From Candidatus Aenigmatarchaeota archaeon (lineage in GTDB: Archaea > Aenigmatarchaeota > Aenigmatarchaeia > CG10238-14 > SCSR01): a stretch of 8,481 bases of DNA. The stretch covers positions 1 to 8,481 of the forward strand of contig JAWCME010000017.1 in the NCBI GenBank assembly GCA_039091335.1. Reading direction: 5' to 3'. The position numbers were made by a program. Positions 1 through 3,000 of the stretch are shown one piece after another. The first letter of the stretch is position 1. Each line of letters starts with the position of its first letter.

Positions 1-3000
1 CAACCATAGCTTACAGTATAATGTCTGCAGTAATAACTCCGGATGAAACAAAAATTCCTGAAAAAAACATAATAAATTACGAGTTAAATGATAGGCAAAA
101 ATATATTCTATTACAAAATGGTAAAGTTATTGCAAAATTTATCTATAATATAAATTGTTTAGAATGCTTACAGCAAAAATCTTACCTTGAATCTTTTGCA
201 ACGCAGTATTCTAATCAAATATTTTTAGAGGAAATTACTAATACGACTACTCAAAACTCTACTTTATTTCTTGAAAGCCTAAGAGGATATGAAGTTTTAA
301 CCAATGTAACTCAGGAAAATGCTTTTAATGTTTTTTGTGAATTGATGCTTCAGCCACCTGTTGACTGTGTTTTGAGGAAAGTATAATGAAAATCGTTGGA
401 ATAGATTTAGCTGGCGTTGAAACAAGAAAAACTGGTTTTTGTGTGCTTGATGAAAAAATGAATGTAGAAACTTACATACTGCATAGCAATAAAGAAATAA
501 TTAAAAAAGTTGAAGATGTGAAACCAAAAATAATTGCAATTGATGCTCCATTGGCTTTACCAAAAGAGAGAAAATCTTTAGAAGAAAAAGGTAATGTTCA
601 TTTAAGAGAGTGTGACAAAAAGCTTTTAAAGATGGGAATTAAATTTTTTCCTATTACTCTTGGACCGATGAGAAAATTAACTGAAAGGGGAATTAAGCTA
701 AGAAAAATATTTGAAAAGAAAGGAATCGAAGTAATAGAAACCTATCCTGGAGCTGCTCAAGATATATTAAAAATTCCTAGAAAGCAAAAAGGAATTGATA
801 AATTAAAAAAAGCTCTAGAAAATTTGGGAATAAAAGGATTGAAAAATAAAATAACGGATGATGAATTAGATGCAGTTACCTGTGCTTTAGTCGGGAAGAT
901 GTATTTGGAAAAAAATTATTTGGCTATAGGTGATTCAGAAGAAATATTAATGATATTACCAAAATTATAGTAACTTTGCTTTTATCCTTCTTATACCAGC
1001 TGCAACAGCTTCTTCTTTAATTATTTTGAACCTACCAAGTTCTTTTGTATTCTTGACATGTGGACCACCGCATATTTCAACAGAAAAATTACCGATTGAA
1101 TAAACAGAAACCCTTTCACCATATTTATGTTCAAAAACAGCTTGTGCTCCTATCTTTTTCGCTTCTTCTACTGTCATTTCTTCTCTCTTAACTGGTAAAG
1201 CTTTTTTAATTTGTTCGTTAACAACTTCCTCAACTTTCCTTATTTCTTCTTCAGTTAACTTTCTATCAAAATTAAAATCGAAACGCAACCTCTCTGGAGT
1301 TATATTCGACCCTTTTTGAACTATATCTCTTCTGCCCAAAACTCTACGAAGTGCTTCATTTAAGAGATGAGTAGCTGTATGTAGCTTAGTGGTTTGTTCA
1401 GATGTATCAGCCAAACCACCTTTAAATTTTTTTTCAGCTCCAACTCTAGAAATTTTCTTATGTCTTTCAAATTCTTTTTCAAAACCCCTTTCATCCACTT
1501 GAATACCTAGTTCATTCGCAAGTTCTTTTATCATTTCTATCGGAAAGCCAAAACTTTGAAAGAGTAGGAAAGCATCCTTACCACTAATTTTTTTCACACG
1601 TTTTGCAATTTCTTCAAATTTCTTCAAACCTCTTTCAAGGGTGTTTCTGAATTTTAACTCTTCTTTTTTTATTTCATTCAAAATAAATTCTTTCTTTTCT
1701 TCTAAATACGGATAATCTTTTTTGTATATTTCGATAACTATTTTAGCTAAATCACCGATAAATTCCTTCTCTATTCCGATTATTTTTCCATGTCTTATGC
1801 ATCTTCTTATCAATCTCCTCAAAACATACCCACGGTCAACATTACTTGGAACAATTTCTTCAGCCATTATAAAAACTGAGGCTTTAACATGATCTGCAAT
1901 TATTCTTATAGACCTTTCTTGTTTTTCATCTGGCAATTTAATTTTTGCAATTTCCTTTATTTTTTCAACGATTGGCCTAAAAGTTTCTATCTCGTACACA
2001 CTCTTTTTGTTCTGCAACACAGCAACAGTTCTTTCAACCCCCATACCAGTATCTACATTCTTCTGCTTTAGCAGCTCGTATTTTCCTTCTTTAGTCTTGT
2101 TATACTGCATAAATACATCATTCCATATTTCAAAATATTTCCCACATGAACATCCTGGCTTACAATCTTTACCACAAGGTTCCTTTCCACTGTCGTAAAA
2201 CATTTCCGTATCAGGACCGCATGGTCCTGTCTCTCCAACAGGACCCCACCAGTTATCTTTTTTTGGCATGTAAAAAATTCTTTCTTTTGGTATACCAACA
2301 CTCTGCCAAATCTTGGCACTTTCTTCATCTCTCGGCACATCTTTATCTCCTGCAAAAACAGTAACGTATAATCTTTCCTTGTCCAAACCAAGCCATTTCT
2401 TATCAGTAAGAAATTCAAAGCTCCATTTTATCGCTTCTTCCTTAAAATAATCTCCCAAAGACCAGTTACCGAGCATTTCAAAAAAAGTTAAATGGAAGTC
2501 ATCACCCACTTTATCTATATCATCAGTCCTTAAACATTTCTGCACATTTACAAGTCTTTTTCCCATAGGATGGGGTTGACCCAACAAAAAAGGGACAAGA
2601 GGATGCATACCGGCAGTAGTGAATAGAACAGTAGGATCTTCTTGTGGAATTAAAGAAGCATTGGGAATAACTTTATGATTTTTTTGCTTAAAAAACTCTA
2701 TGTAGAGTTTTATCAGCTTTCTTGAATCTATAACCATAATCTACAATTAAATTCCTAATATTGAAATAACTAACGGATTTAAGCCAGAAAAAAACAAAAC
2801 TGAAGGAACCAATAAAACACCCATACAATGAGTTCTTCTTATACCAAGATAAACACAAAGCAAACCGATTGCGAGAGAAGTAAACAAAATCAACAATCCT
2901 TTAATTCCAGAAAGCAGAAAAACCATAGAAGTAATAAGCACAATAACTAATAAAGAAATAGTTTTATAATTTAGTTTTTCCAAAAATCTTGGAATCTTTC

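Follow-up and report, generated by a model that had tools for sequence, protein, structure and literature searches.

Alanyl-tRNA synthetase (AlaRS) is often described as keeping one prototype structure throughout life (PMC8887476, PMC10036535). A shorter form, small-AlaRS (NF002436 / PRK01584), has been reported in CPR bacteria and in DPANN, Asgard and Thermoplasmatota archaea, and its transfer to archaea is supported by bacteria-specific insertions and by a tree (bioRxiv 10.1101/2023.05.29.542759). The enzyme consists of catalytic, tRNA-binding ('ATL') and editing domains and lacks the cradle-loop barrel and C-Ala. The passage on small-AlaRS in that preprint does not deal with Aenigmatarchaeota, and neither disappearance of the native archaeal gene, nor genomic context, nor recurrent exchange inside a lineage is mentioned there.

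Homeoalleles have been described for several other synthetases (TyrRS in bacteria; ThrRS, SerRS and LeuRS in archaea; Andam and Gogarten, PMC3191353; PMC3436685). As characterized there, homeoalleles are two diverged versions of a gene that serve one function inside a higher taxon; each genome carries one form, and the patchy spread requires transfer between relatives. Homeoalleles can have the same syntenic context, which Andam and Gogarten explain by recombination in the flanks. The AlaRS genes compared here resemble them in divergence, in the single form per genome, in patchy spread and in the shared slot, and their spread would likewise call for transfer. However, AlaRS is not among the described cases, and the term 'AlaRS' does not occur in PMC3191353. 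The present case also differs in that one form is bacterial in origin and much shorter, three forms occur in the slot, the hosts are members of one DPANN family whose genomes measure roughly 0.4-1.7 Mb, and flank-gene trees are used, whereas the homeoallele studies used a ribosomal reference tree.

In xenologous gene displacement in situ, a transferred distant or non-orthologous gene of the same function replaces a gene of an array at the same position. Omelchenko et al. (2003, Genome Biol 4:R55) reportedly surveyed such events in operons across distant genomes. The alaS locus likewise involves same-position replacement in a conserved array by a transferred gene, but replacement appears to recur many times in one family, and the neighbourhood occupies both strands rather than a single operon.

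The window analysed here is the whole of contig C9 (8,481 nucleotides) from a Candidatus Aenigmatarchaeota genome bin, and the coordinates of its alaS ORF (965-2737) hold unchanged. This ORF, on the reverse strand, is intact and without internal stop, and was described in an earlier note on this DNA as encoding a 590-aa short bacterial-type AlaRS. The description is borne out by a score of 935.6 bits against NCBIfam NF002436, a 595-position model of the short AlaRS (cut-off 529), and by the low score on the archaeal model TIGR03683 (249 bits, cut-off 744.7). The NF002436 match runs from one end of the model to the other (residues 6-589 against profile positions 4-592), and the cut-off of the bacterial model TIGR00344 is also exceeded (652 vs 457). 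We identified the Pfam domains tRNA-synt_2c (E 3.6e-147) and tRNA_SAD. The solved catalytic fragments 1RIQ and 3HXU align to residues 3-431, and the editing core of the A. fulgidus enzyme (its residues 590-732) aligns to residues 443-585. Identity to the 860-900-aa forms is 42-50%.

The predicted protein has the same three-domain build as small-AlaRS (catalytic, tRNA-recognition and editing core, with neither a beta-barrel subdomain nor C-Ala), and sequence comparison assigns its catalytic core a bacterial affinity. The canonical archaeal AlaRS (TIGR03683; 3WQY and 2ZTG of A. fulgidus) would have the same function and editing core, but has the beta-barrel subdomain and C-Ala; the archaeal AlaRS on contig C12 of the bin is 25-30% identical to the window enzyme. 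The translation of the window gene contains HxxxH and CxxxH, which we take to be the zinc ligands of the editing site. The enzyme probably alanylates tRNA-Ala and edits Ser-tRNA-Ala. A single tRNA-Ala was detected in the bin, and it carries G3:U70 and A73.

The archaeal AlaRS on C12 (775 aa; C12:13444-15771) scores 789 on TIGR03683, above the cut-off, and lies at the place that matches the alaS slot of C9. Many short contigs of the bin duplicate segments of the long ones, with 55-80% identity at the amino-acid level (e.g., C7 and C1 with 12 ORFs, C13 and C27 with 9, and C9 and C12 with 5). Both AlaRS types are present in this bin because it mixes two organisms, as the earlier note had held, and it is the only bin of the phylum with both.

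The neighbours common to C9 and C12 confirm that the bacterial alaS occupies the syntenic place of the archaeal gene, and the identities previously given for three of them were reproduced. On the downstream side, the DUF429 gene (386-970, forward strand; Pfam DUF429) is convergent with alaS, overlaps its end by 6 bases and is 72% identical to C12:16529-17134. Beyond it lies hypA (3-386, forward strand), which encodes a small membrane protein with a CxxC motif, is cut by the contig end and adds a fourth shared neighbour (42% identical to C12:17113-17538). On the upstream side, all on the reverse strand, are a TctA-like membrane protein (2747-3950), a membrane-anchored OB-fold protein (3956-4366; Pfam tRNA_anti-codon, with a hydrophobic N-terminal stretch), a DUF498 gene (4422-5009; Pfam DUF498, 50% identical to C12:11980-12372) and, as outer anchor, the C-terminal end of IleRS (8158-8481; Pfam DUF5915), which runs off the contig and is 55% identical to residues 871-977 of the C12 IleRS. 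The division of the TctA gene into two ORFs is due solely to a scaffold gap (N run 3643-3652); both pieces match Pfam TctA, covering profile positions 124-422 and 1-95.

Throughout the phylum, hypA follows alaS on the downstream side, and it adjoins the slot in families f1, f21, f25 and f38. The C12 copy has a hydrophobic N-terminus and CxxC, and hypA has no match in Pfam or NCBIfam. We considered hypA as a free-standing C-Ala domain and rejected this, given the membrane anchor, the CxxC motif and the lack of a C-Ala or DHHA1 family match.

Across the family, the gene order is IleRS, (DUF498), OB, TctA and alaS in one direction, then (SIS or DUF429) and hypA in the opposite direction, SpoIIM in the direction of alaS and LeuRS against it. 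IleRS is upstream of the slot and the OB-fold gene pairs with TctA throughout. Whichever AlaRS type is present, its gene is flanked by TctA/OB on one side and DUF429/hypA on the other and points the same way. An upstream flank (TctA or OB) was identified at 21 of 22 short-type and 31 of 40 archaeal-type family loci, counting loci with upstream sequence, and a downstream flank at 18 of 23 and 25 of 36, respectively. Slot and orientation are the same in families f1, f8 and f38; in families f21 and f25, alaS is in the same slot but inverted. One family genome (G050) has a bacterial-type LeuRS in its LeuRS slot, and bacterial-type LeuRS is present in 4 of the 70 family genomes.

The locus could in principle reflect a binning or assembly artefact, with the alaS contig a bacterial contaminant or a chimeric join, as the bin is mixed and C9 is short and contains a scaffold gap. 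However, genes of the archaeal family lie on the same contig as alaS in the window and at most short-type loci, as the upstream flank counts show, and short alaS is found on long contigs (e.g., 786 kb in G029 and 791 kb in G033). GC3 of alaS is 0.25, near the 0.17-0.22 of its neighbours. The 120 best database relatives of the window AlaRS are 73-91% identical, and the nine among them with an organism name are all Aenigmatarchaeota. We regard an artefact as almost certainly the wrong explanation.

Over the NF002436 cut-off, the short type is present in 24 of 70 family genomes, or 23 of the 69 others (13 genera), which agrees with the earlier count. Contig-end fragments in G030, G036 and G064 lift this to 26 of 69. 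The archaeal type is over its cut-off in 36 of 69, and five near-cut-off or fragmented genes lift it to 41; two genomes, G002 (76% complete) and G060 (73% complete), have neither type, and none has both. The mutual exclusion claimed in the earlier note holds; its own figures were 40 of 69 for the archaeal type and 6 for neither type. Many of these genomes are metagenome bins, some of them mixed (G000, G055). Five genera (g12, g16, g18, g23 and g24) hold both types. Among 370 other genomes of the phylum, searched at E<=1e-100, 41 have the short type, 293 the archaeal type and none both. The six other families of the order have no short type in 48 genomes, as stated before; this is correct for the order, and the short type is present in 17 of 301 genomes from other orders.

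A profile search identified no archaeal AlaRS in any of the 26 short-type family genomes. Matches to the archaeal model in these genomes are AlaX-size frames (232-256 aa). One further match, in G030, covers profile positions 542-733 within a 755-aa frame.

In bacteria, resistance can be conferred by a duplicate synthetase (PMC3191353; IleRS, PMC10485003), and the short enzyme could by analogy be an accessory copy, either an inhibitor-resistant or a regulatory paralogue, rather than the housekeeping AlaRS. Such a role is barely plausible: searches of the 26 short-type family genomes gave no second AlaRS, the window protein matches the short AlaRS model over its whole length, and its editing domain retains HxxxH and CxxxH. 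The window gene is the putative working AlaRS of the second organism in the bin.

The nearest relatives of the window AlaRS outside the family are from DPANN archaea (other Aenigmatarchaeota orders and Woesearchaeota-labelled genomes), at 60-76% identity. Spirochaete and Bacillota/clostridial AlaRS are second nearest at 55-59%, in line with the 56-57% noted earlier for Borrelia, Treponema and a clostridium. In a mixture-model tree, the archaeal short sequences form one clade (45 of 94 rows, SH-aLRT 98), and the short forms group with bacterial long forms in trees from which archaeal-type AlaRS were left out. On these grounds, the window alaS is assigned to a short clade of bacterial ancestry that is common to small-genome (DPANN) archaea, and this three-domain enzyme probably now circulates among them. 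A spirochaete or clostridium as direct donor was rejected, as their enzymes are only second nearest and the archaeal short forms are a clade of their own. A pair of Patescibacteria sequences adjoins the DPANN clade with FastTree (support 90); the same node in the mixture-model tree is a polytomy with CPR, Bacillota, Spirochaetota and PVC sequences. The topology and the inverted orientation in families f21 and f25 suggest several separate entries of the short type into the phylum, and holding the Aenigmatarchaeota sequences of the DPANN clade together is not rejected (AU p 0.168, reduced 45-row LG+G4).

We identified a third, also short, alaS in the same slot of three genomes (G030, G033 and G037). 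The G033 and G037 sequences nest inside a clade with 10 named Patescibacteria (SH-aLRT 100), and G030 carries this gene as two fragments. An unnamed 247-aa ORF adjoins it. The third allele is 59-65% identical to named Parcubacteria proteins and 47-50% identical to the window AlaRS, and is of Parcubacteria origin.

The linked flank genes of the alaS slot served as reference trees, on which the two types are patchily distributed. The concatenated flank tree (61 loci) requires 15 changes of type with FastTree and 14 with IQ-TREE, and at least 10 of the 14 IQ-TREE switches are forced by branches with SH-aLRT >=95. The upstream flank alone requires 14 changes (56 loci) and the downstream flank alone 11 (43 loci). 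Between IleRS and LeuRS, conflicts among well-supported splits are about as frequent as between either of them and alaS (6/14 and 7/13). The flanks are mosaic, so the number of switches is approximate. Greater mobility of alaS than of its neighbours is not supported, as all genes of the region conflict at similar rates. The archaeal AlaRS was probably displaced more than once in the family, with about 14 switches on flank trees that disagree (11-15), and we infer the direction of most of these.

One genome, G059 of genus g24, is a clear recombinant, with a g25-like alaS within g24-like flanks. Compared with alaS of genus g25, its own copy shows 93% protein and 82-91% DNA identity, and the two group together (100/100). 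In contrast, its LeuRS, SpoIIM and hypA are nearer to g24 (72-75% and 53-58%) than to g25 (67%, 53% and 30%), and its flanks group with g24 (SH-aLRT 100). A clade of G059 and g25 is rejected by the downstream flank (AU p 6e-7, for groups named after the trees had been inspected). The tract of high DNA identity stops at the alaS border, and similarity decays through DUF429.

The window gene itself lies outside this case. In alaS trees it falls with G043 and genus g16, a placement that differs from that of its flanks, but the grouping of the flank tree is not rejected (AU p 0.117), and a recent transfer of the window's own alaS is not supported.

The same AU result, which allows the short-type members of the window's flank clade to be kept as one group, is compatible with one ancient acquisition in the family ancestor followed by long coexistence and differential loss, with no later transfers. 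Other vertical groupings also survive, including that of the DPANN-clade sequences given above and genus g25 without G059 (p 0.068), and family monophyly is borderline (p 0.049). Furthermore, the short types of families f1 and f8 fall into a single clade (SH-aLRT 99), and short-type identity tracks LeuRS identity (Spearman 0.92 in the 10 loci having both), which fits vertical descent or co-transfer. However, a history of this kind is most unlikely when set against the lack of genomes with both types in the family and the phylum, the mixed bin apart, and against the use of one slot by two types that are never side by side in the loci compared. The forced switches, the G059 recombinant, and the presence of only the archaeal type in the six sister families also argue against it.

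We consider it probable that the short DPANN-clade alaS of the window is one of three non-orthologous versions of the slot that have been exchanged repeatedly between relatives, likely via recombination in the flanks. The slot is filled by the native archaeal enzyme, the short DPANN-clade enzyme (as in the window) or the second short enzyme from Parcubacteria, with one version kept per genome. Most likely, DNA from a relative would be taken up and would then recombine by homology within the conserved flanking genes. Recombination there would place the incoming alaS exactly where the old one was, and long coexistence in one genome would be unneeded. Cells would tolerate the switch because all AlaRS enzymes recognize the G3:U70 pair of tRNA-Ala.

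Flank recombination would not account for every step, as the very first entry of the bacterial gene cannot have used homologous flanks. In each replacement, a foreign alaS may instead have been inserted non-homologously beside the native gene, which was then deleted, with no part for flank recombination. The inverted alaS of families f21 and f25 fits such insertion, since a simple double crossover in collinear flanks cannot yield an inversion. Variable cargo ORFs adjoin alaS in many loci (HIT, NUDIX, dehydroquinate synthase and methyltransferase), which indicates that the slot tolerates insertions. On the other hand, at least 10 insertions into the same intergenic place would be needed within the family. 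No tandem of the two alaS types, the expected intermediate, was found in 70 family loci or in 31 loci from other families, and the 23 variable ORFs scanned around the slot include no mobile-element genes such as an integrase or transposase. The G059 tract, ending at the gene border and decaying through DUF429, suits a recombination tract. Insertion and deletion without flank recombination is thus an unlikely account of the switches.

With regard to homeoalleles, the family has two main forms and one form per genome in the counts given above (26 short, 41 archaeal, 2 neither and 0 both; n=69), and replacement by exchange between relatives was found in one case, that of G059. The finding introduces no new principle: homeoalleles and in situ displacement are established, and the short AlaRS in DPANN archaea is already in the preprint.

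We tentatively raise the possibility, about which we are doubtful, that the alaS slot, and perhaps the whole HisRS/IleRS/AlaRS/LeuRS neighbourhood, is an exchange point where archaeal, DPANN and CPR synthetase versions are a selected standing polymorphism among episymbionts. If so, drift alone would be insufficient, and selection would be required, for example by natural AlaRS inhibitors or through the benefit of a smaller enzyme. The Parcubacteria-derived alaS and the bacterial-type LeuRS of G050 would then be two faces of one process.

Repeated exchange at this slot would mean that an essential translation gene acts as an interchangeable cassette in one family of ultra-small archaea, with three non-orthologous versions, one of which came straight from CPR bacteria. 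The family would provide a well-sampled natural system for core-gene replacement without a lethal intermediate, and would allow the extent of DNA exchange to be gauged, both among uncultured DPANN archaea and with CPR bacteria. For phylogenomics, it is a warning that AlaRS, LeuRS and perhaps IleRS are unfit as vertical markers in this group.

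We identified alaS on contig C9 (965..2737, minus strand), which the window covers in full and which is part of a bin of 570 kb and 29 contigs, as a stop-free open frame of 590 residues. The product matches the class II AlaRS core (Pfam tRNA-synt_2c, E 3.6e-147) and, in its editing module, the second additional domain. It matches the NCBIfam model for short alanine--tRNA ligase end to end (NF002436, 595 positions; 935.6 bits, cut-off 529), passes the general bacterial model TIGR00344 (652 vs a cut-off of 457) and fails the archaeal model TIGR03683 (249 vs 744.7). In alignments to solved structures, residues 3-431 correspond to Aquifex and E. 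coli enzyme fragments that cover catalysis and tRNA recognition, and residues 443-585 to positions 590-732 of the A. fulgidus enzyme, its editing core. Judging from this coverage, the protein has neither the beta-barrel subdomain nor C-Ala. The translated editing part contains HxxxH and CxxxH, presumably the zinc ligands. GC3 is 0.25 for alaS and 0.17-0.22 for adjoining genes, so composition is no marker of recent arrival. Also encoded in the window are a TctA-like gene, read as two ORFs (2747-3619 and 3612-3950) because of a 10-N scaffold gap at 3643-3652, and an HMG-CoA synthase gene (5053-6648, 531 aa). Synthase matches of the latter cover residues 3-265 and about 268-356, and residues 412-440 resemble a rubredoxin-like zinc ribbon of the ChsH2/DUF35 kind; this looks like an HMG-CoA synthase fused to its DUF35-type partner.

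A 'small-AlaRS' with this architecture has been defined and reported in CPR, DPANN, Asgard and Thermoplasmatota, and its transfer to archaea argued, according to a preprint (10.1101/2023.05.29.542759). That a DPANN archaeon can have a short AlaRS of bacterial type is thus in itself already known.

The bin also encodes an archaeal AlaRS on contig C12 (13444-15771; 775 aa, 789 bits on TIGR03683), which is 25-30% identical to the short enzyme. The two contigs share four neighbours: hypA (42%), DUF429 (72%), DUF498 (50%) and the C-terminal end of IleRS (55%). The earlier note had attributed the two copies to a bin mixing two organisms, and this holds: long contigs are partly duplicated on many short ones at 55-80% amino-acid identity (e.g., C7 on C1, 12 ORFs; C13 on C27, 9 ORFs), and relatives have a single such alaS region per genome, so the bin comprises two related organisms, the second present only in part. 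The one exception among relatives, G055, has two archaeal alaS loci (L182, L188), one near-identical to the G004 locus (genus g2), the other to the G056 locus (genus g24), and is thus another mixed bin. A single tRNA-Ala was found in the bin (G000:C18:2218-2300, anticodon CGC), with G3:U70 and A73; because it is 83 nt long, it probably contains an intron. ARAGORN identified just 16 tRNAs across the whole bin.

Among the 69 other species genomes of the family, the short type exceeds the cut-off in 23 (13 genera) and occurs as contig-end fragments in G030, G036 and G064 (total 26). The archaeal type exceeds the cut-off in 36 and is near the cut-off or fragmented in G011, G019, G024, G026 and G041 (total 41). 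Neither type was found in G002 (76% complete) and G060 (73% complete), and none of the 69 has both, as the earlier note had stated; five genera hold both types. The only archaeal-model matches in short-type genomes are free-standing frames of AlaX size (232-256 aa) and one match in G030 (755-aa frame). The short type is absent from the 48 genomes of the six other families of the order; elsewhere in the phylum, 17 of the 301 genomes from other orders have it (families f8, 5/21; f19, 1/1; f21, 3/44; f25, 5/9; f30, 1/1; f38, two genomes). Across the phylum at E<=1e-100, the short type was found in 41 other genomes and the archaeal type in 293, with no overlap when the lists were compared by hand. 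The archaeal alaS of G034 (L166, 8444-11335) is split into pieces of 567 and 210 aa, which a profile search gave as one 996-aa frame with one TGA. A 197-aa ORF between the pieces has weak likeness to NUDIX / isopentenyl-diphosphate isomerase (E 7.6e-15, below cut-off); the locus may represent a domain insertion or a broken gene.

For 67 family genomes, we retrieved up to 20 kb around alaS and used the C9 and C12 genes to annotate the ORFs. The kept order is PIN-ATPase and HisRS (leftward), IleRS, (DUF498), an OB-fold protein (OB), TctA and alaS (rightward), (SIS or DUF429) and hypA (leftward), SpoIIM (rightward) and LeuRS (leftward). Either AlaRS type occupies the alaS position in the same orientation. 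For the short type, TctA/OB lie within 4 ORFs upstream in 21 of 22 loci having upstream sequence, and hypA/DUF429 within 7 ORFs downstream in 18 of 23; for the archaeal type, the upstream flank is found in 31 of 40 loci and the downstream flank in 25 of 36. Beyond the family, the short gene occupies the place of relatives' archaeal gene in the same orientation in f8 and f38, and lies inverted between the same two neighbours in f21 and f25. The hypA gene is the downstream neighbour in f1 (the family itself), f21, f25 and f38, irrespective of AlaRS type. Its product (window 3-386; L201 13116-13538) has no match in Pfam or NCBIfam; from its hydrophobic N-terminus and CxxC motif, it may be a membrane-anchored thioredoxin-like protein. 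The OB + TctA pair upstream of alaS occurs in two forms of opposite orientation, with TctA identity of only about 39-43%. The inverted form is found in G014, G021, G028, G029 and G034, and the forms differ even inside genus g16 (G029 vs G027: TctA 43% and OB 29%, but IleRS 77%).

The best 120 database relatives of the window AlaRS are 73-91% identical, and all nine with an organism name are called Aenigmatarchaeota. The nearest named species genomes outside that phylum are Woesearchaeota-labelled archaea and some Methanosarcinales-labelled bins (60-69%), followed by Bacillota, Spirochaetota, PVC and CPR bacteria (51-62%). The archaeal-labelled contigs with a short alaS are archaeal. Transcription factor E, NreA or an Sso10a-type protein adjoins alaS on 10 of 14 such contigs; ribosomal protein L21e was identified in three of five tested genomes behind these labels, and archaeal AlaRS in none of the five. 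In a 94-row tree (IQ-TREE, C20 mixture, short search), short forms split from the eight long bacterial forms included with support of 100. One archaeal clade of 45 rows (support 98) comprises 17 family sequences, 14 other Aenigmatarchaeota, 13 of 14 rows labelled as other archaea (one of the 14 being labelled 'bacterium' only) and one further row; one Woesearchaeota-labelled sequence falls outside. FastTree with 140 rows recovered the same clade at 99. The mixture tree gave no resolved candidate for its bacterial sister. The 0.9 Mb genome behind locus L040 (G375, labelled 'bacterium' only) encodes two AlaRS frames of the short type (596 and 625 aa) on separate contigs, and an L21e gene was not found in it.

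A third version occupies the slot of G033 and G037 (g16): a short AlaRS of 634-635 aa, just 47-48% identical to the window enzyme, also present in two fragments in G030. The named sequences related to it come from Parcubacteria and other Patescibacteria (59-65%), and it nests within the Patescibacteria clade of the 94-row tree with support of 100. This is a second, independent acquisition into the same slot, directly from CPR bacteria.

Switching was counted on trees of genes linked to alaS: seven flank genes were concatenated for 61 loci, and 9 of the 70 family loci with <350 flank residues were dropped. Type changes number 15 with FastTree and 14 with IQ-TREE, at least 10 of these forced by branches with SH-aLRT >=95; shuffled labels on the IQ-TREE tree need about 20. 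Upstream genes alone require 14 changes (56 loci) and downstream genes alone 11 (43 loci). These counts are approximate because the region genes conflict among themselves: well-supported IleRS and LeuRS splits conflict in 6 of 14 and 7 of 13 cases. Conflict rates are similar for all region genes, with no sign that alaS is more mobile than its neighbours. The tree of archaeal-type AlaRS likewise departs from the flank tree (G028 with g17; G067 and G068 apart). By these gene trees, the whole alaS region is a mosaic. Short-type identity closely tracks that of LeuRS (Spearman 0.92, 10 loci), but only weakly that of IleRS (0.34) and TctA (0.26). Three vertical groupings were not rejected in AU tests: g25 with G059 left out (p 0.068), the clade of the window's flanks when applied to the alaS tree (p 0.117) and all Aenigmatarchaeota DPANN-clade sequences together (p 0.168); family monophyly was borderline (p 0.049).

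G059 is the clearest switch case. Its AlaRS is 93% identical to that of g25 and groups there at 100/100, whereas hypA, SpoIIM and LeuRS are nearer g24 than g25. The downstream flank falls in g24 at 100 and its placement in g25 is rejected (AU p 6e-7, groups named after the trees were seen). DNA identity to g25 is 82-91% along alaS, 66-72% in DUF429 and 38-55% in hypA.

Replacement probably proceeded by recombination in conserved flanks between relatives, as proposed for synthetase homeoalleles (PMC3191353). The fixed slot, the lack of any two-gene genome, the G059 tract and the general mosaicism fit this. The 23 variable ORFs adjoining the slot include no integrase or transposase; they encode HIT, NUDIX, dehydroquinate synthase, methyltransferase, class II synthetase-like, KaiC or MFS-fragment proteins, or belong to no family. 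The first entry of each bacterial version, and likewise the inverted f21/f25 copies, cannot have relied on flank homology, and insertion beside the native gene followed by native loss is more likely for these. G3:U70 is described as the universal tRNA-Ala identity element for AlaRS (PMC6055181, PMC6451123); since AlaRS reads it, interchange is plausible. The order's native archaeal AlaRS (C12:13444-15771; families f1-f7) is about 770-800 aa and also appears to lack C-Ala, because its TIGR03683 match ends at ~785-830 of 902; this may have eased the swap. Most other orders of the phylum have frames of ~900 aa whose match reaches ~900; in f38 and f39 it reaches ~757 within frames of 950-990 aa.

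LeuRS seems to be a second synthetase that has been displaced in place. G050 (L139, 12780-15260, minus strand) encodes a bacterial-type LeuRS in the LeuRS position after SpoIIM (TIGR00396, 904 bits, cut-off 548), where C12 has the archaeal type (TIGR00395, 990 bits). Four of 70 family genomes have the bacterial type (G050, G019:C45, G038:C102 and G039:C36). IleRS, with pairwise identity of 42% to 94% within the family, may also occur in divergent, exchanged forms; about half of the well-supported splits conflict between its tree and those of LeuRS and TctA.

Within the set of papers searched, one uses the term 'small-AlaRS', nothing joins Aenigmarchaeota with AlaRS, and queries on gene transfer of AlaRS or other synthetases in DPANN identified no displacement at a fixed locus. 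AlaRS is not mentioned in the homeoallele paper (PMC3191353). Like synthetase homeoalleles, the alaS system of this family consists of divergent versions at one locus, one per genome. What this family adds to the transfer already reported is a well-documented set of three AlaRS homeoalleles in DPANN archaea.
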